A stretch of 64,000 nucleotides of DNA from Fimicolochytrium jonesii (lineage: Eukaryota), in contig NW_026515671.1 in NCBI RefSeq assembly GCF_025526975.1, positions 1,612,001 to 1,676,000 on the forward strand, written 5' to 3'. The notes beneath the pieces were generated by a model, which was not told the origin of the DNA, did not search any database, and was given only the letters and a program-made list of their open reading frames with translations. This document shows, in pieces, positions 46,445-60,450 of the stretch; positions within the stretch are counted from its first letter, which is position 1; each line of letters begins with the position of its first letter. The position numbers and the translations under genes are program-made.

Positions 46445-46868
46445 GGTGACAGAGACATCCGCTGCGAGTCATTTAATCACTCTTGTCCCTTCCTGGGAGC
46501 GCTATGCCATGGTACGACGTAATCTCATATATAGTAGTGATAGAAAATGTCCAAACAGCGTTACCTAATCGAATGTATAGGTTGCATTCGATTAGGTCAC
46601 GCTGTTTGGACATTTTCTATGTAGCCGTCCCCTTGATCGCAAGGATAGAGCAGCAAACTCCTTGCATGAGAACATATGGGATTCAAAATACGTGATTCAA
46701 TCATAGGAAGAGCGACAAGAACGAAAGAGCGATTTCTATCCACCCCTGATTCACAAGCTCTCCCCCAACGCCCCCAACCGACGTTCTTCCGATGTGTCGC
46801 CGTCCCGGATCGATGTGCAAGAGTCCGGGCCGTTCGAAGGTACCTCATCTCCTGTTTCCTGTCAGATC

Positions 46869-48857: not shown

Positions 48858-51800
48858 TCAAACATCTAAGGGCCCTGGCCCTGGAATCGCGCTTCCCTTT
48901 TTGTCGTCGCTGCCACTTTCGCCCTTCCGTTCTGCCGTAGGTGGCAAAGTCGGTCTCCTTCCTGCCGAGGTCCCCACCACGCTTAAATCTCTACCCCTCC
49001 CACCCGCATTTACGGACCGGCAACTTTTCTCCACATCTTTCTGCTGGAGTTGGGTAAGCAGCGCGGACCAATTGGTTGCATCTGCCTCGCTCAGTTGCAT
49101 TTCGATCGTGCCGATCTTCCCACCAGCTATGATCCGCAGGACTTGCTTCTTCTCCCGCACTGGATCCAGTTCAAACTTGAAAGTATCCTCTCTCCAATTG
49201 CAGGATAGAGCCGAGCACTTGAAGACAAACGATACGAAGTCAGTTTCAGTATGTTCCCCACGATACGTCGGTCATCAGATGGATCGGCAGTATGGACTCA
49301 CATCAGGATACACATAAATGACCGTATGGTGCGCCGGCAGACATATCACATGGACATCCCTCCATGGGCCAAACATGAGCTTCGGCTTGAATCGCGCCAT
49401 CATTTGATGTTGGACCACATTCGCTAGACCCTCTTGCGCATGATTCGACACCGTCTGGCTAGTGATCGAACTCTGTCGGCTATCATCAACCCGGGCCGTT
49501 GCTCGGATGCCCGCTTTTAGTCCCAATCCGTTTGATGGCTTCAAGTCGGATTCTCCTTTTCTCAGGATCAGCCATGCCTTTGGGGCGAAGGTCACGGTGA
49601 GAATGACGAACGATGCGGACCAGATCGCGATCGCGCGAACCATGAAGACTAGGCTTGGCGTTGTTCCTGGCATGAAGACGACGGGAAAGCCGAGGAGACA
49701 AAAGACGATCACGTTGTAGGAAGCAATGCCGAGCTGCTTTGATTCGTTGTACTGCAGGGCGACATTGCGATTCTGGTCATGATTGAGCACACCGGAGAAT
49801 AGTTTCAGTGAGACGCAAATATCCGCACACAACCGTATCCACTCACCACGAACGCAAATAAAACAGTGACCCCCAGAATGAAACCGTTATATGCCATCAA
49901 CATCGTGCTCCACGTATTATTGGCAGACTGGCACACAAGGTAGTGATCCGTCGATTCCGGATTCATCATGACCGGTATTGGAGGGGAAGCGGCGCCCCAG
50001 ACAGCGATCATGATTACATTAATCAGAACAAGCGGGACCGTCGCCTGTAACAATCGCATATCTTTCAGCGCCTTTTTGGATGGCCTCGGATTGTTAAAAA
50101 TGTAGTAGATGCGGAGGTTCTTGATGCAGAGACTCCCCAGCGATAGCGAAAAGCCGATGGCGAGAAGGGCGGGTGCAACTATACAGCTGGCTCGGGTGAC
50201 GGGACCAGCATAGAACAGGTTCGAGATGAAGGTCAAGGCAAGACCCAATAAGATCAGGCCCAGGAAGATCGGACTGGCGGCTTTGATGACTTTCCGTTTG
50301 ACGTAAATTCTGGTGAACACCGCGGCGGCCAGGATACCCAGCAAGCCGACGCTGCTCAAGAATGCAACGAAGATTCCCAGCGGAGCGCTGTAGGCTGTGT
50401 ATGGAACGCAAGGTATCACGACTTGGATGGCGATGGGATCAGAAGTTCTCAGATCATCTATCACTTGGTAGGAAAGGGTGTCGATCCCACAACCTGTCGG
50501 GTGGAAGGTCAGATCAAGTCGATAGATGTGTGAGGAGGTATTGGAAGTCGCGGACAGAAGCTCGGCATTAGAGATGCGCTCGCCCGCTGCATTTGTCAGA
50601 TATCCTATCCCCGGAGGCTTGGTGATTTGAAACTTCGGAGTCCGCTCGTCCCGTTCATAAGCTTCAAGCATCACGGTGAATGGCAGAACATCTCCGGTGC
50701 CACCATTGAGACGTGATACCGGATAGCTCATTGCCATTCCCTCGGGGGCCGTCGCCGGATGAACCAGGGAGGTCAAGTGGATGGTGACGGTGCTCGTTTC
50801 GGATAGCTGGGAGAGATCCCCAATGCAGTCCGTCGCCCCGTAGTCAAACCCATCGACGCCACTCTTTGAGGGGTCGGGCACGTACACGACTCGATACTGC
50901 ATGTCGGTGACATAGCCAGCTTCTAACCGGTCAGTCCCCACGTTCTCAATTGCATCAATCTCCTTCCATCCGTCGAGTTTATAGTTGGCACGATCCAGCC
51001 TAATTGCATCCGTCTGGAAAGGTGTGCCACAGACGCCCGGCGAGTTCATCAGGTAGGTCTGCGATATATATGTGCCCCTTGATGAGTACAGGTCTTTCTG
51101 CGCTGCGCCTTTCCACACTGCGATCCAGTCGTTGGTGGCAGGATGCCGGACGGAGATGATCTCCGTAGTTCCCGGATTCAGATTTTCGTATCTGTTTCCC
51201 AAGTTTTCTTTCAGCAGATGAAACGAAGGATGAGGTCCGGTGAGTGCAAGAAACCTACGAGTTGATGCTAACAATATGCGTCGCTAAATCATATCCAACC
51301 TCAACGAACTCCATCGCATTCGGCGAAGGCGGGCAGTTCCATCCCCATGGATTTGCAGGACCCTTTGGTTCGCACTTGACACCCCTCGGCGTACTTGGAC
51401 ACCAGGAATCTTCAGAGCCGCCATAGCCGAGATCCGCGCGACTTGCATCATATTTCTCTGGCGCGCCTAGCAGAGCATTGACACCATAGCCAGAGTATTC
51501 ATCTGTCCAATAATACTGGGTGCTAAAACGCAGAGTCGGATCACTCGGCCAGGGGATGGTTCGGTTCGGGTACTGTGGAACTCGGCTAACCCATTGCTTC
51601 TTTCGTGGCTGACTGATCCGCCACGGTGTAAAGTACTCTGTAATGGCTTCCCCAATGTAATTCGGTGGATTAGTTTCATTGTATTGATACAGCTTGCCGA
51701 GTGTCGGAAGCGAATTGATGGTGCACACCAGAAGCCGCTCATCCGAGTCTTGAGTGATTGCATTCAATTGAATGATGATCGAGGATGCGTTTTCTTCTGA

Positions 51801-54548
51801 GATGTACGTGCTGAGGAATGGAAAGCCGTCCCATCCGATGTTGCTCGGTTGCTTCGGGGCCGCTGTCCACAGGGGGAAACGGGATGCAGATCCACCGCCC
51901 AGCTGACCGGCATAGGATCCAGCAGGCCCGCATAAAGATGCCTCAGTCGTGCTTGCGGAAACCGGTGCACCGCAAGCTGCAATACCCTTGCTGCCCTCAT
52001 TTAAATGCCACACTACGCTCAAATTGGCCGTCTCTTGCGGTCTGAGGAGAACATTCAAATTCCTCGATCCTCCCACAACCCCTTTCGACGAATTGAAAAT
52101 GGCAATCTCGTCCAATCCACCCTCGTATCCTTTCCCGATTACGAGCCCCGTTCCGCTGGATGGTATGCCGGCGGTGGAAACATGTACGTCTTGTACATTA
52201 TTGTTCACGTATATACTGATCTCTCCGCTCGAGTCTTTGCTCACAGCTACATGCGACCACTGCTGGGAGGTGATATTTGCGCGGAGGAGCGGTTGACCGG
52301 CGACGGCAAAACGCAAGACGTTGTGCACTTGATCCATAGTGAGAACAAGCGTATCGTCTGCGGTAGCCCATATGCGTGCCGCAGTAGACGACGATACGGG
52401 GTCTGGCCATAACCACATCTCCATAGTGAACTCCGCCATCCCCAAAAGTGGGTAGTTCGGGAAATCTATATGGTGTCGATTTGCAAATGTCAGATAAAAG
52501 GTGTTGACGCCAGCAACGGCCGGAATCCCGGTCCTTGCGGCGAGGTTGATTGTCGCGACGGCGTTGTTGGTTGAGACTATCCCATGCTCGCCTACTACGC
52601 TGAACTCGAACGTGTCAAATGGGGCACCGTGTTCATTGGGGTGTGGTACATATTGGATGCCGTCTACTTCGGTGTTCACGACATCACCGACACTCAACAG
52701 CTCCTTTCGTTGCGGGACGTCGTTCCAGATCAAGGTCGCTCTATAGATTGAACCGCGAATTGGAAGTGTCTGCACAATCGCACCTTTAAATGGCCCTTGT
52801 GCAAAGGGGCGTGCCGTCAGAGGGATGAAGATGTTTGCAGCCCCCGCTACGACATCCACGTGAACATTCCGAGCAGTCAGCGATTTGGCAACGATGAGTG
52901 TCACGGTCGCCGATGTCGGCGCTGATGTGCCGTCGGAGATCTGGTACGTGAATGTACAGCTAGCATCCACTGCCGCGGTGGAGGACACCCAAATTGTGTC
53001 ACTGTTGCCCGGGATAACGCTCCCATCAACGGCGGGTGTGACGGAGTCTAGGTATATAGACCATCCGGCTGCCGTGGAACAGGTTTGAAGTGACTGGATT
53101 GACGTGGTGATCTGTGCATTGGGGACGTCAGAAGAACCGGGAAGCTTGACGCTGGATAAGGACGCCGACGGAATGAAGGCCCGCACTCGTCGGCTGCCAG
53201 TCAAGGGGGCATCGGAAGGGATCCAAGAAGGTCGTCGGTTGCATTCGACGTTCTGTTTGCATGTGCCACAGTCAGTCAACATGAGAGAAATCAACATCAC
53301 GGTTGGGATCCTCCCACTTACGTCCGAGACTCCAATTCTCCCAGCGGGGCATTCGACAACATCCGCAAACGCATTCTGACCTCCCAGCACCAGTGGGTTC
53401 GCAGTTGCATCAACCTCATTCAAAATAGTCTTGCTATCGCTTTCCAGTATGTCCATCCCCCATTTTGCGAATAAGCCCGCGGTGCTTCCCGGGAGCACGT
53501 GGTGCATATCCGCTTGAATCTCTTCCTGCGTCCGAACAACGTTCCATATCTTCGTTGAAAAAGGTGAAGGAGCGTTGACGTAAGTCAATATCGAGTGCAA
53601 CGACAAAAGCGCAAACCCACCCGAACTTCATCCATAACCCCCACAAACGCCTTCAGGTCCTGAAACGAGCCATAGAATGCATCCTGGTCCTGCCCCAACA
53701 CCAAAGCGACCGTGCTCGTAAGATTAGCGCCCACTAAGTAGTCTTGCGTCTCGGTGTTTTCATCGCTGTATTCTAGGTCGCCGTTGAGGTAGAAGTGGGC
53801 TACTCCTGTTGTGACCTGTGAGGGTGTGAGTTGTTGCCCGAAAGGGGAAGCATGTGTGGGCGATGAAGGGATACGTACATCCAGTGTGAGCGCTTTAATG
53901 GAAGCAATCCGTGTGCAGATCAACAGTTAGTCAAGCTATGCGTCCCCGGAACGACGCAACATATCCATTGACCCTACCCATATGCTGCCACTCCCCCAAC
54001 CGAAGATCCGTCCAATTCGTCGCAGACTAATAGCAAGCCGCATCAGCCCAAATATCAACAAAAGCACATTACCCAAGAAAAATCACAAACCAAAATGGCC
54101 CCTGCGGTATTCGACAACAACGACGCATAGCCATTCTGTACATTAATGTAATCATCATCAGCGCCATCATCCACCCCCTCAAAATTGAATGAATGCAACA
54201 CGGCGAGGGAGAAGTAGTGCGGGTTTTGGGAGACGAAGGGGAAAAAATTGGTTCTGCGGTTGTGAGGAAATGTCGGGTTAGCTATTTTCTTCATCACATA
54301 TAAAGGAGGGACGCTGTCCATCACTCATACTTCGCCCAAAACTCGATCGTGAAAGTACTTGGAGGCCACTGCGTTACGATTTGGCCGTACGAGACCCCGT
54401 CGACGATGCCTTGGCTTCCGATGCCGGCAACTGTGGTTGTGTTGTAGAAATACAATGCGTTGCCTGCGCCGCCGGCATACAAGGTCGCTTCCGTATAGGG
54501 AAAGGCGACGCAGGCTAGAAGGAACAGGAGAAGGAGACAGATGGACAT
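48858..54548 (-). CDS. Class C (7tm_3, GABA-B-like) GPCR with very large LamG/Ig-like/FBXL4-like ectodomain and PH-like cytoplasmic tail, multi-exon
   Basis: Signal peptide MSICLLLLFLLACVAFP; LamG motifs FTIEFW, VGVMDEVR, FTMEMW, QWSHVAV and GGLDEIAIF; 7TM motifs KVIKAASPIFL, GFSLSLGSLCIKNLRIYYIF, YNESKQLGIASYN and TFAPK. Confidence 0.88.
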
Positions 54549-55102: not shown

Positions 55103-55965
55103 TCACCACAACTGTGCATCAGCTAACCAGCCCGGACCATTCCATCTCGGTCGATGACCGTTGTAGTGTGAATATTGATGAATCAGGAACCGAAAGTTGG
55201 CGGCAGCTTGAATGTCTCTGTCAAAGATGGGCGGCATATCAGGAGGTATCTGGCATGTTGGGCACTATCAAGTCTCCAGTTTCTGCCCATCTCGTTGCGG
55301 GACTCTGGGCACCTTGGAAACAACATCGGTTCCGCTTCATCTGCTTCTTGCTCGCACTATCGTCGGAGTCCGTGCCTGGCCGGAGCCTCCCGGTGTCGAC
55401 GATACCAGTACTTGGGACGATGTTTGCATGTGCCATAGGGTTGCCAAGAAGCCCTGGTGTCGTGGATATTGGCTTCTGGAAATTGTCCGGCGAGGGTCTC
55501 GTAGCCTGCCATTGAATTATGGCATTGTGTCGTAGTGCCCATTTCAGGCATGATGAAGACAGTTGCGCCGGCAACGGCCAGTTGTCTGGCAAGGCTCTTG
55601 ATTGGCACGGTGCCATGTGGTTTCTGCCAGCCACGACGTGTGAAATCACCAGAACCAAAGGCGAAAACGGGTTGATGTTCCAAGCTGAATGCGAGCCTGT
55701 CTTCTGGGTGGATGTTATTCCGTGGGGCATTGGTGTGACGATCGTAGTGGTGGTTTCTAAGGCATCGCATTCGGACCTTGTACCGATGGTTTCTTCTCAG
55801 GCCGGCGCCTCTGGCCAGGCCAGATGTGTGGCCAATTCGTTGCGTGGATGCCCAACGCTCGTGGGTGACGCGCTTCATGAGGTGGAGGGCATCATCCATC
55901 AACGCTCGCTGCTGATGTATCTTCCAAAAGTGTTATGGATGACGCGCCCATACCATAAGCTTACC
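55103..55965 (-). pseudogene. Fanzor1 (TnpB-derived RuvC nuclease), C-terminal half, disrupted
   Basis: WYGRVIHNTFGRYI/QRAL helix, VFAFGSGDF..HGTVPIKSLARQLA..VFIMPEMGTTTQC (rearranged RuvC-II Glu plus TT-x-x-C), CPTC, FDRDIQAAANF (RuvC-III) and GHRP. In-frame TAGs at 55357 and 55265 plus two apparent frameshifts. RuvC-I not found. Confidence 0.78.
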
Positions 55966-55977
55966 TACTGACAGCCG

Positions 55978-56059
55978 CCAATGTCAACTGCCAATGTCAA
56001 ACGCCAATGTCAATGTCAATGTCAGTGTCAATGTCAGTGTCAATGTCAATGTCAATGCC
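55978..56059. repeat. (CAATGT)n hexanucleotide tandem array
   Basis: About 12 CAATGT/CAGTGT units abutting the 5' break of the Fanzor relic. Confidence 0.9.
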
Positions 56060-56213
56060 ACTCCCCCTCTCTCCTCTCATTTCGCCAATCCCGCCTCGGC
56101 TTCTCCACATCACCCCACTACTTCTCCATAGCCAGGCCACTCCTCCTCTCTGCTCTCATTTCGCCAATCCCCCCTCGGCTTCTCCACACCCCCCACCACT
56201 TCTCCATAGCCAG
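56058..56213. repeat. Tandem duplication of about 77 bp
   Basis: CCACTCC..CTCTCATTTCGCCAATCCC..CTCGGCTTCTCCACA..ACTTCTCCATAGCCAG occurs twice head-to-tail. Confidence 0.85.
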
Positions 56214-56493
56214 CAGCTGTAGCAATGATCTCTACGCTCGCCACGCACGCTCTAGGAGCATAGCTGGCGCCCCCGCCGGTCCCCTCTTGTTGTTGTTGTT
56301 CTCTGGCCTGCTGGGTTGCCTATCTATAACTAGCCGCCCTCTCTTCGTCCATTCCCTTCCTCCCCAGCAGATCAACACCAGTTCTTCTCATCTCCTGTTC
56401 TAGTCCTTGTTTCTTGTTTTGCCAATACAATCTCTTGTCGCCTATCACTCTCGCCTTGTCTTCTCTACTTCGCTTCCGCCTCAGTCGTCGAGA

Positions 56494-57720
56494 TCATAAC
56501 AGAAGCAATCTTGTGAAAAATTTGTTGGCCGGCTCTTCAGTTCTCTCTTCCGGCCGACGGCCGGCAATTTCCACCCGGTACCACCGCGCCAAAGCGCCGA
56601 CGTGTTGTCTTGCTCCCGCCGCATCCCGGTTCCTCATCGAACCCAAAAGTCTGGCCAACGACTGACCCAGCTCCACGCTCATCGTCTCCAGTCCGAAACG
56701 CTCTCCAGTAAGGATGTCCTGGAGAGGACCGTCAAATATCAACTGAACCGCAGTTCCGGCAAAACAGGTACCACCGGCACTCGGTATGCCAAATCTTGTT
56801 TGAACCCCACCCCCCCGGCCTCCCCGTGAGCCCGGTGTCATTGTTCCCCGGCCTCTATCTCCCCGGCCTCCATCTCCCCGGCCTTGATCTCCCCCGCCTC
56901 GCTCCGGCCGCGCTCCACGAGACCCAGTCCTACGGCTACCAGGAGGGGGGTTGAAGCCTTGTGGACTAGGCATCAACGGAGCTGGCATGGTTTCGATGGC
57001 ACTCCACACAGGCAAGTCTTCGATTGGAAGGCTTTGCGATCCACGGGCGAGGGTGTCGTCGTTGTTTCTGTCAGGCGGAAAGGGGATGTGCACCCGGACA
57101 CCTTCAATTGACCGGAGCAGGTGGTGCGTGTAGGGCCCGGTTGAAGATTCCGACTCGGTGCTGGTTGTTGCTCGTCGAGGCTGGGGGTCAGGAAGGTCCT
57201 CAAAAGTGAGAGGCACCACAATCCGAAGGATGGTTCTCCGGGGATTCGCCGGGTCTGGCGAACGCGTGAGGCCCATGGACATGGGGATGGTCACATTGGG
57301 AGGGAAGACAAGCCACCCGTCCCGGTTGATGGAAAACATTGCCGAAGGCTGAATGTACCCATGTCCCGACTGGCTATGGGAGCCGTCGCCTCCATCTCCA
57401 TCATGCTCTCCAGGTGGTTGGTCAGGCTGCTCCGCGGGGTTCGGCTTGTCGGATCGTTGAGGCTGTACCGGCGGGATCGGTGGCTGAGGTGCTGGAGGTT
57501 CCGGTGGTTGAGCTTGTTCAGCTTGTTCAGGTCGTTCCGGCTTGGTTGCGGTTTGTTCGGTGGTCAACGGCTCTGGCCTTTCTGGGTGTCCCGTTGACGG
57601 ACCCAATGGGGCTGGTAGATTTACACCGGCTTGCTGTGTGCTTGGTCCTGCCGTCCTAGAAGGCCTAAGGGGAGGCGGAGGCTTTGGGATTCCAACGGGC
57701 AGATTAGGTTCATTGGCCAT
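56494..57720 (-). pseudogene. Pro/RGG-rich ORF ending in a truncated USP (peptidase C19)-like domain
   Basis: RFGIPSAGGTCFAGTAVQLIF resembles the USP Cys box (GLxNxGNTCY/FxNSxLQxL), and EEPANKFFTRLL resembles the QxDAxEFLxxLL box. No His box before the stop. Confidence 0.5.
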
Positions 57721-57800
57721 GGTGGAAGTTGTTGGAACGGATGCTTGAACACGGGGGAAACTTGCGGAGGGGTCTTGATTTCTACGACGTGGGTAGAAAC

Positions 57801-57885
57801 AATTGAGAATGCAAAGTATACGTACTAGAAAAGGGTGGATATCAATTGAGAATACAAAGTATACGTACTATAAAGGGTGGATATC
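57801..57885. repeat. 43-bp tandem direct repeat (2 copies)
   Basis: AATTGAGAATGCAAAGTATACGTACTAGAAAAGGGTGGATATC followed by a near-identical copy, about 80 bp upstream of the USP-like ORF start. Confidence 0.9.
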
Positions 57886-58025: not shown

Positions 58026-60450
58026 CTAATTCGAGACGACATTTGACCGGCCTTCCAACGCAGCCTTATTAATCTCCTGCTGGAGAAGGATATGGGCGAC
58101 TTGATGCCAGTTTGTTTGACAGCGGCATGACAAGTTGGATAAGGTAACGTAGCAGGCAGGACGACCGTCCGGTATCGTTATCGTTCTAACCTGAATCCAA
58201 CGGGCAGCTGGCCGCTTCGTATAAACTGTAATAACCGAAACATAAGACACTGACCAAGCCTGTCACACTCAGCCACATGCTGTGCTCAGGGTCTCCTCAG
58301 GTGCTCAGCTCACAGTGTGGAGGAGGGGCATAATATTATGGTGGATTTGTGACGCCCAACAACAGTGAATATTCCCTCTGTCCATGCAGTTGGAAGGAGA
58401 GTAAAGATTCTCGTCTCAACATTTTGGATCTAGATCTTAGAGTTCATCGCATTCGATTAAGTTCTGGCAACAAACCGTTGACGTACATAAATGTACATGT
58501 TACAAAAGAAATCCGGGTTGACTTGACTTGAGGACGACGACGACGACAAATAGAGAGAGCGGGCGCTCCGACCAGCCTGCATCCTGAGCCCGCCACCCGT
58601 CAGTCTCGAGTCAAACACAAAGCATCCCAGCACGTTCCTAAAAATAGTAGGTGCCAAGATGCGACCGGTGATCCACAACAGGTTGCTGACGCACGATAGG
58701 GCACCCGTTCTTCCCATGGCATTGTTCAGCAAGCCAGGCACAAATCTTACACCACGCTTTAGAGAGAAGATCCCTAAAAATAGTTCCCAACTCAGGCGTG
58801 ATGCTCGAAATGCGTAGGTCGTGCCTTCATATAGCATGAGCGGCCCCGGGGCCGTCCGTAACGCTCCCCGTGTTGCTTCACAACGGCCGTGCCATCATCT
58901 TGACGTCTTGGTATACTGCTTCAGGGCATGAAGAAGTAGCATCTATTGCAAAAGGAAAGACAGATGTGAGGACGATGATCTGGACGACGACTGGATAAAA
59001 CCCGATTGATGCCTACCTCTCGAGAGCTAATCCCCGGCAGTCATCACAATCTCAAACAGATTAGTGTTTGAATTGTGGGAGCTGCAATATGTCCCACATA
59101 TGCAGGTAAGGAGAGCGAAGAACGCATCTGGAGGCAACAAAGAATAGTGGAACATTAGAAGGCGAGACCGAAGAACGCCACTTTGAATGGAAGGTGGACT
59201 TGCTTACCAACGAGATGCCAGTTCTTCGACAACGACGACGCATAGCGACTCTCACCATCATTGCATGAGATGGAGTGCATCAACGGAGTACATGACCTAA
59301 GGTGAGAAACAAAGGTGGATATAAGATAGCGACGACGACGATGGGCTAATGGTGCATGAGCAGTTGGAGTCACAACGGTACTTACCATCAATCATGTAAA
59401 CCTCCGGCGAAATGTACTGCACGACACATCAGCGTTAACGATGGAGCGCATATGCACTGATAGACCTGGATGAGTAAGATGAATAAGACGAGGGAAATTG
59501 GGTTAGCAAAGACCGTATAATAAGGGTTGATTGATTTGCAGAGGTAATACTAACCATGTGTGTGATCTAAGACCAGCAAAGGAGCGCCCATTGGTTGCAC
59601 GTAGTCGGCAGTGAACGTATGCTGCGATTGGCATTGGCCTTGTAGCGACGAATGGCTTGTGATTGATCTGTGACTGGGACAGTGAGTTTAGAATGGGACA
59701 ACCGGCAACGAACACCTGTCGCACACGAGTATGGTATGGAAACAGACCAGCTTGAACGAGTGCCAAACGAAAGAGATGTGGCGATGATTAATTCTGGCGA
59801 TGATCGCGATGAAGCATCTGGAGGTGAACTTTGTGGCGCTGGGAGTACAGTACGTTCAGGCTGGAGCGTATTTGTAGAGTAACTGTCACTTAAGTGAACC
59901 GAAGAGATTGCAGATGAGTAGATTGGATCAGATCGGGATCTAGATTGGGGGAACGCCTTGTTGAAAAAAAGTGAACGAGGTAAGGCGCAAGGACACAGAC
60001 TTTTATACGTATGTACCCGGAAGCGACGCGTCCCTCGGTGGCAAATGGGGTCGCATAGCCACTCACACGTGTTTTGCCCAGATTCGTATGGACACATCTA
60101 TTAGTTTTCCGTTTTTTTGCCTGAATTTAAATAGCAACAGTGGTTTTCTGCACGCGTTCAGGACAGATGACAGTTATTAACACTGAGTTGGGTGCGGACC
60201 ATCGACGCATAGAAAATGACAAGGCCGACGGGTCCGAGACGTTAGATGTAGGAGCCGGGAAGATCCGTGAGGGATGGGGGGACTCGGGAGTACGTGTAAT
60301 GGAAGGCAAAGTAACACTGTACTGTACGCATGGGCTTTATTCACGCGTATCGACCACCCTCAGACGTGTTGGGCGACGGGCTGAATGCGGCGCATGTGCA
60401 AGTATCAATACCGAGAGAGGGTTAGATTCTCGCTGCATATACAAATGAAA
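58026..60450 (-). mobile_element. Highly decayed multi-exon gene, possibly a Mutator (MULE)-type transposase relic
   Basis: SWIM-like YVTLSNLSCRCQTNWHQVAHIL at about 58085-58150 (third Cys absent). Several GT..AG intron-like segments at about 58930-59385 and many stops. No DDE triad confidently seen. Confidence 0.3.

Follow-up and report, generated by a model that had tools for sequence, protein, structure and literature searches.

Fanzor1 genes and decayed copies of them are already known from chytrids. The model of an omega-RNA-guided, TAM-dependent RuvC nuclease comes from SpuFz1 (PMC10432273; review PMC13565253). TnpB and Fanzor C-termini carry a [TS][TS]-x-x-C motif followed by RD (PMC3627910), and a Gly-for-Glu swap at RuvC-II combined with a shifted Glu is a Fanzor signature (PMC10530073; bioRxiv 2023.08.09.552727). 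The sequence described here resembles SpuFz1 (Spizellomyces punctatus, PDB 8GKH), GtFz1 (9CER) and PpFz1 (9CF0) in the order and spacing of the RuvC-II Gly, L-x-C-x-x-C, RD and RP; like the SpuFz1 type it has its shifted Glu seven residues ahead of the first Cys, and it belongs to the same chytrid host group. It differs from all three in giving no direct sequence match to them, in an insertion of ~60 aa ahead of RuvC-II, and in being broken.

The locus lies in the Fimicolochytrium jonesii window, by which we mean the whole stretch of 64,000 nucleotides analysed, and occurs there once. On the minus strand, from 55,920 to 55,103, we find the remains of a C-terminus with RuvC-II, zinc ribbon and RuvC-III, which, on the strength of its sequence, is probably a dead member of a divergent Fanzor1-type lineage, that is, the pseudogenised C-terminal half of such a gene. 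A preliminary description had quoted minus-strand peptides in three frames, and all of them are present where it placed them. The relic and its immediate surroundings consist of the following features.

55,914-55,964, minus strand: frame A, the first fragment of the preliminary description (WYGRVIHN), in an intron-like stretch GTAAGC...CAG without an open gene.
55,360-55,920, minus strand: frame B, the main relic frame, with the end of the RuvC helix (IHQQRAL) and then an insertion of ~60 aa; recognised from relatives and profile.
55,654-55,656, minus strand: Gly of the RuvC-II strand, in frame B; recognised from relatives and profile.
55,543-55,545, minus strand: shifted Glu, in frame B; recognised from relatives and profile.
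55,524, 55,428 and 55,374, minus strand: first Cys, C-x-H word and HGL word, in frame B.
55,357-55,359, minus strand: in-frame TAG stop inside the conserved word H-x-L-x-x-[HY]-C, which the relatives P0002, P0003, P0004 and P0011 read through.
55,270-55,356, minus strand: frame B past the TAG, with a Cys, FPRC and RNWRL; weak similarity to P0002.
55,265-55,269, minus strand: frameshift between RNWRL and CPTC, across which the Fanzor1 profile aligns.
55,103-55,264, minus strand: frame C, with CxxC, the RuvC-III RD, AAN, GHRP and a stop; matched by P0011 and the Fanzor1 profile.

Frame B reads QRALMDD from 55,911 and reaches upstream to IHQQ at 55,920 (score 88 vs 77 without this extension); its later landmarks are the Gly of FAFG (55,656), the Glu of PEMG (55,545), the Cys of TTQC (55,524) and RNWRL (55,284-55,270). 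Frame C continues with CPTC from 55,264, RD at 55,219-55,214 and a TGA stop at 55,105-55,103. The TnpB/Fanzor motif is thus found as TTTQC at 55,536-55,522 followed by the RD at 55,219, and the claim that Gly occupies the canonical RuvC-II position while Glu is moved just ahead of the TS motif holds, with a spacing of 37 residues between the two (34-36 in 56/56 viral Fanzor1 sequences). Frame A fared differently: the peptide WYGRVIHNTFGRYI, which starts at 55,955 on the minus strand, had been taken as the first part of the relic, yet it scores no better than z -0.7 to 0.4 against P0001, P0011 and P0008, the relatives tested.

A search with frame B among 1.84 billion protein representatives gave ten proteins at E<=0.001, the best at E 8e-31 and 57% identity, with 39-57% identity to the relic over the matched stretches. 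Five of the ten are unnamed and the named ones are all chytrid, F. jonesii contributing two (57% and 50% identity), Phlyctochytrium arcticum two and Chytridium lagenaria one. The uncharacterised members of this family are KAI8820779.1 and KAI8826597.1 (P0002) in F. jonesii, KAI9095457.1, KAI9105506.1, KAI9105535.1 and KAI9102517.1 in P. arcticum, and KAI8841399.1 in C. lagenaria. The chytrid proteins have in common with the relic the motif G-x-G-x-F...W..[GP]HG.VP.K.L.RE.A..GA.V...E.G[TS][TS]; they differ from it in that the named ones are all partial gene models, that DPG is seen in KAI8841399.1 only, and that Asp stands where the first zinc Cys is expected in the members from P. arcticum and C. 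lagenaria.

Gly, Trp, His, Pro, Glu and Gly are near-invariant across the family. Conservation of the catalytic residues in homologues, which the preliminary description had expected, is largely borne out: the Glu of E-x-G-[TS]-[TS] occurs in 12/13 relatives and RD in both protein relatives that reach this region (as DRD in P0003 and P0011), but a decayed member on a metagenome contig, L001, reads Y-R-Y at the RD word. P0008 carries IGVDPG, the RuvC-I DPG, near its N-terminus. We have seen no intact member, because the three catalytic motifs never occur together in any one relative; the gene models are short (99-410 aa) and none reaches the WED/REC region.

In P. arcticum the family is multicopy: one 386-aa protein is found at two accessions, a 99%-identical copy lies on another contig, and there is a more distant fourth. 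The near-identical copies suggest recent copying, or mobility. The L001 member (L001:697-1556, on a contig of 33% GC) is split by GT-AG introns. Its intron after VPTK coincides with a stretch that P0010 reads through, which suggests an intron position common to the two; the window copy is without such an intron. In F. jonesii, residues ~110-190 of P0002, before its Fanzor-like part, look like what we take to be the N-terminus of a fungal Crypton tyrosine recombinase, and this N-terminal stretch had no match in Pfam or PDB.

Beyond these proteins, scans for the family in viral contigs and prokaryotic genomes produced 12 and 48 pattern matches, of which none could be confirmed; metagenomes gave 53 of which one (L001) was confirmed, and plasmids gave one chance match (E 6). 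A word-index protein search with the family profile returned only three members, already known, and a word-index search with frame B for longer proteins returned none.

The assignment to Fanzor1 was examined against a giant-virus reference, in which 121 stretches with the Fanzor RuvC-III word led to 56 distinct ORFs of at least 330 aa. An 18-member viral alignment was validated against SpuFz1, PpFz1 and GtFz1 (E 7e-60, 5e-73 and 3e-49), a 7-sequence profile was made of non-redundant C-termini chosen from 53 viral ORFs with a DPG-like word, and the relic, read through its breaks as X, was the query scored against the Fanzor1 profiles. With the 56-ORF profile, which is dominated by one subfamily, the relic scores 3.6 bits, more than any of 1,000 shuffles. 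With the 7-sequence profile it reaches 14.1 bits, at a per-sequence E of 1.3e-6, whereas 1,000 shuffles attain 4.1 at most, and when this profile is run over the six frames of the window, frame B ranks first (E 0.012). The alignment proceeds in register with the relic through G-D, E, C, L-x-C-x-x-C, RD, A-N and RP. Profile-profile comparison scores 32.5, while 148 column shuffles give 19.7 at most (0/148); a second comparison scores 28.8, with 0/60 column shuffles in a local hhalign control. With the relic as query against 742 viral ORFs, 44 of the top 50 are Fanzor ORFs (base 111/742; the matches are mutually related), while the family HMM as query is barely enriched, with 18 of the top 50.

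Could these resemblances be chance, and the family an unrelated fungal protein? Frames B and C match no Pfam family, PF07282 included, NCBIfam holds nothing for the family, and none of frame B, the family profile and P0008 has a sequence match in PDB. For the profile comparison proposed in the preliminary description there is the alignment with a diverse Fanzor1 profile, but HH-suite probabilities are only 4-22%. The structural comparison that it proposed gave no match: AlphaFold models of P0011 and P0008 are of low confidence (mean pLDDT 41.8 and 51.5), Foldseek found nothing at E<=0.001 in PDB with them, VIA-align recovered only coiled coils (Z<=6.5), and at this confidence the models are uninformative either way. 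Against chance stand six ordered motifs that align in register and far outscore their shuffle controls, the DPG and RD of the relatives, and independent hints to PF07282, which annotates 10% of the members of an ESM Atlas cluster at 0.94 and appears below cut-off (E 0.004-0.04) in 3/10 relatives. We regard a chance likeness as very improbable, and the link to Fanzor1, judged from motifs and profiles, as remote but consistent. The proposal of a divergent Fanzor1-type family is upheld by the ten relatives and by this distant, in-register profile match.

Whether the family might instead belong to another branch of the TnpB family with a shifted Glu (Fanzor2*, pro-Fanzor or TnpB2) bears on the same data, and Fanzor1 was the only class whose profile was compared, the choice over Fanzor2 or TnpB being suggested by motif order and the profile match. 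A shifted Glu is common to Fanzor2 and some TnpBs (PMC10530073, PMC13565253), and the TDG/WED and REC2 features specific to Fanzor1 were not found, the models of the relatives being short. However, the H-x-L-x-x-x-C word and the RP tail align with Fanzor1, the named relatives are all fungal, L001 is a fungal-like contig with GT-AG introns, and no relative was found in the prokaryotic genomes or plasmids scanned. Another branch is therefore, in our judgement, improbable, and we retain a Fanzor1-type origin.

The lesions argue for a pseudogene. Breakage by a frameshift near 55,268 had been recognised in the preliminary description, which overlooked the in-frame TAG at 55,359-55,357. We interpret this TAG as a nonsense lesion and not an intron edge because it falls in the word read H-x-L-x-x-[HY]-C in relatives; the word is present in 4/13 of them, the others ending earlier or diverging. 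One tblastn segment with P0002 extends past the TAG to 55,276, although the post-TAG piece of frame B alone reaches only z 1.5 (94/1,000 shuffles). Frame C is better placed, with z 11.8 against P0011 of P. arcticum (0/1,000 shuffles) and E 0.001 against the Fanzor1 profile. An intact gene, with the breaks explained as assembly errors, introns or TAG read-through, would agree with the occurrence of introns in the family, both in L001 and in the models of P0010 and P0006/7/9, which run into them. Both TAG and frameshift, however, fall where relatives have coding sequence, the existence of TAG-free host frames of 776-790 codons argues against TAG as a sense codon, and three further stops and a microsatellite follow just 5' of the relic. 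The sole intron-like stretch, 55,964-55,912, was considered as a rescue of the gene and rejected, as its removal leaves an upstream stop. We find an intact gene very hard to defend.

Upstream of the relic (5' on the minus strand) lie the following features.

55,969-56,057, minus strand: (GACATT)n microsatellite with three units of 13 nt; V-D-I-G (Asp 55,985), a repeat-confounded RuvC-I candidate, appears in one reading.
56,057-56,213, no strand assigned: tandem duplication of 79 bp, 92% identical.
56,323-56,493, minus strand: charged stretch of 57 codons in frame B, with the words LYWQ and GVDLLG (Asp 56,373).
56,494-57,720, minus strand: orphan open frame of 408 codons in the frame of B, Pro-rich and then RGG-rich.

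The RuvC-I DPG was not found at the locus, which offers only the unsupported words VDIG and GVDLLG. The reading HWRLTLAVDIG...YG scores 39 against the RuvC-I of P0008 (z 4.7, 2/1,000, for a 32-residue piece chosen post hoc), but against the 2-kb frame it falls to z 0.8 (41/200); we did not accept this alignment as RuvC-I, because its words derive from repeat units and because of that z of 0.8. The WED TDG motif and REC/REC2 gave no significant match upstream of the relic and none in any relative. No inverted repeat stands out around the relic (best 20.3 bits, shuffle median 22.3), there is no Rfam match for an omega-RNA, and the 3' flank folds like its shuffles (z 0.2; windows z -1.3 to 1.9). 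A 43-bp tandem repeat lies at 57,800-57,885, just upstream of the 408-codon frame.

These upstream frames raise the question of how far the relic extends. The 408-codon frame together with the charged stretch (taken as 56,493-56,113) could represent the N-terminal REC/WED/RuvC-I half, giving a relic of ~870 codons broken up by stops and expanded repeats, a reading that is compatible with the one that we prefer. The 408-codon frame shares strand and frame with B, and its length is beyond chance (0/2,000 shuffles attain it). By eye, though without statistical support, the charged stretch at 56,323-56,493 is like the region ahead of RuvC-I in chytrid Fanzor1, its LYWQ...GVD spacing being that of LY[FW]..x..D in catalogued members, and SIEGV is a weak match (E 0.28), in position, to the WED TDG strand. 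On the other side, the 408-codon frame has no relative in Pfam or protein searches and no significant match to the N-termini of the family or to Fanzor1 profiles, and the lesions are concentrated in the 3' part, with three further frame B stops between the microsatellite and duplication and the 408-codon frame, while the 408 codons themselves are free of them, as would suit a separate gene. A longer relic is possible, but we consider it doubtful.

The GC content of the window is ~54%, and its genes, among them PPIP5K, TCF25, TUTase, M20 peptidase and Kelch, are eukaryotic and split by introns. Directly downstream of the relic, at 49,278-54,540 on the minus strand, is a host gene with LamG, Ig/cadherin-like and class C GPCR 7tm_3 (E 2e-34) domains. 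At 58,400-59,900, also on the minus strand, a GT..AG-split intron-like stretch with a 145-codon frame has no Pfam match; its positions 59,225-59,263 are 79% identical to 54,110-54,148 in the GPCR gene, and the stretch is perhaps a decayed paralogue of that gene. A near-perfect palindrome of 81 bp (89% self-complementary) occurs at 46,540-46,620.

The zinc ribbon and the insertions around it set the relic apart from Fanzor1 of the SpuFz1 type. From Glu to RD the relic spans 109 residues and P0011 128, compared with about 50-65 in the SpuFz1 type and with 43-63 in 54/56 viral Fanzor1 sequences (135-139 in the remaining 2/56); from the helix to RuvC-II the relic has 85, P0011 66 and P0008 100 residues, and the viral L003 ~25. 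The long insertions of the preliminary description are confirmed by these lengths, but not as a distinguishing novelty: they are real yet not unique, because other Fanzor1s carry long zinc-ribbon or RuvC insertions. A long zinc-ribbon insertion is likewise present in KAI9105825.1, a P. arcticum Fanzor1 catalogued in Table S2 of Yoon et al., and in the viral L024 and L071, and the RuvC domain of PpFz1 contains an insertion of ~100 aa (PMC11423790). We found no relatedness between the insertion of the relic and those of KAI9105825.1, L024/L071 or the PpFz1 FRI domain, the last of which lies ~20 residues upstream of the RuvC insertion of the relic family. One giant-virus contig (L024, L071, L138-L141) holds four related Fanzor1 copies of ~880 aa with a long zinc-ribbon insertion.

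Compared with the SpuFz1 type, the relic lacks the second Cys of the first CxxC and has additional C-x-H and Cys words, and TIR and omega-RNA were not found. The first pair had been read as C-H, which the family does not support, His following Cys in only 2/8 relatives that have Cys; among the 12 relatives with the E motif, which are partly non-independent, the first position is Cys in eight and Asp in four. The C-x-H/R word further on is near-invariant in the family. In the TnpB/Fanzor superfamily a zinc finger of two CxxC pairs is followed by RD after 5-50 residues; here the second CxxC (CPTC) stands 12 residues before RD, the first pair has one Cys, and more Cys words lie inside the insertion.

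If the locus is, as we propose, the pseudogenised C-terminal half of a divergent Fanzor1-type gene, it was probably left by a DNA transposon. By analogy with Fanzors that have been characterised, its undamaged ancestor would have bound an omega-RNA made from the right end of the element, recognised a TAM and guide-matched DNA, and cut with a D-E-D RuvC site made of the RuvC-I Asp, the shifted Glu and the RD Asp. Such RNA-guided cleavage of emptied sites would have promoted the re-copying or restoration of the element. The present copy is predicted to make no active nuclease, because the RuvC-I DPG was not found and the RD half is severed by the stop and the frameshift; with one TAG and one frameshift, the earlier verdict of inactivity at this locus stands.

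The lineage is apparently uncatalogued in the published Fanzor tables that we searched. The accessions of seven relatives (KAI9105535 left out) have no match in the Fanzor supplement of Yoon et al., which holds rows for F. jonesii (33), P. arcticum (10) and C. lagenaria (1); the Saito tables searched contain none of these three species, motif searches of paper supplements (first 400 characters per cell) gave no match, and literature searches found no description of the lineage. A bolder reading, speculative and as a whole rather unlikely, would make the relic a fossil from a fungal lineage of Fanzor1 that bears introns, is uncatalogued and was missed by earlier HMM surveys. The lineage would have remodelled its zinc ribbon, with the Cys pairs split and Asp taking the place of the first Cys in P. 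arcticum and C. lagenaria, and in P. arcticum it would be mobile to this day. Its intact spliced copies would encode an active nuclease with an N-terminal architecture of its own or a transposase partner, as hinted by the 408-codon frame and by the presumed Crypton-like stretch of the F. jonesii model.

The locus is predicted to be dead and has little to teach in itself; its value is as a way into a Fanzor1-type lineage that escapes standard Pfam and PDB searches and, to judge by the tables searched, published HMM surveys as well. Intact copies, should there be any, would extend the range of RNA-guided nucleases known in eukaryotes, and would offer a test of whether cutting can survive when a zinc ribbon is rebuilt or loses a part.
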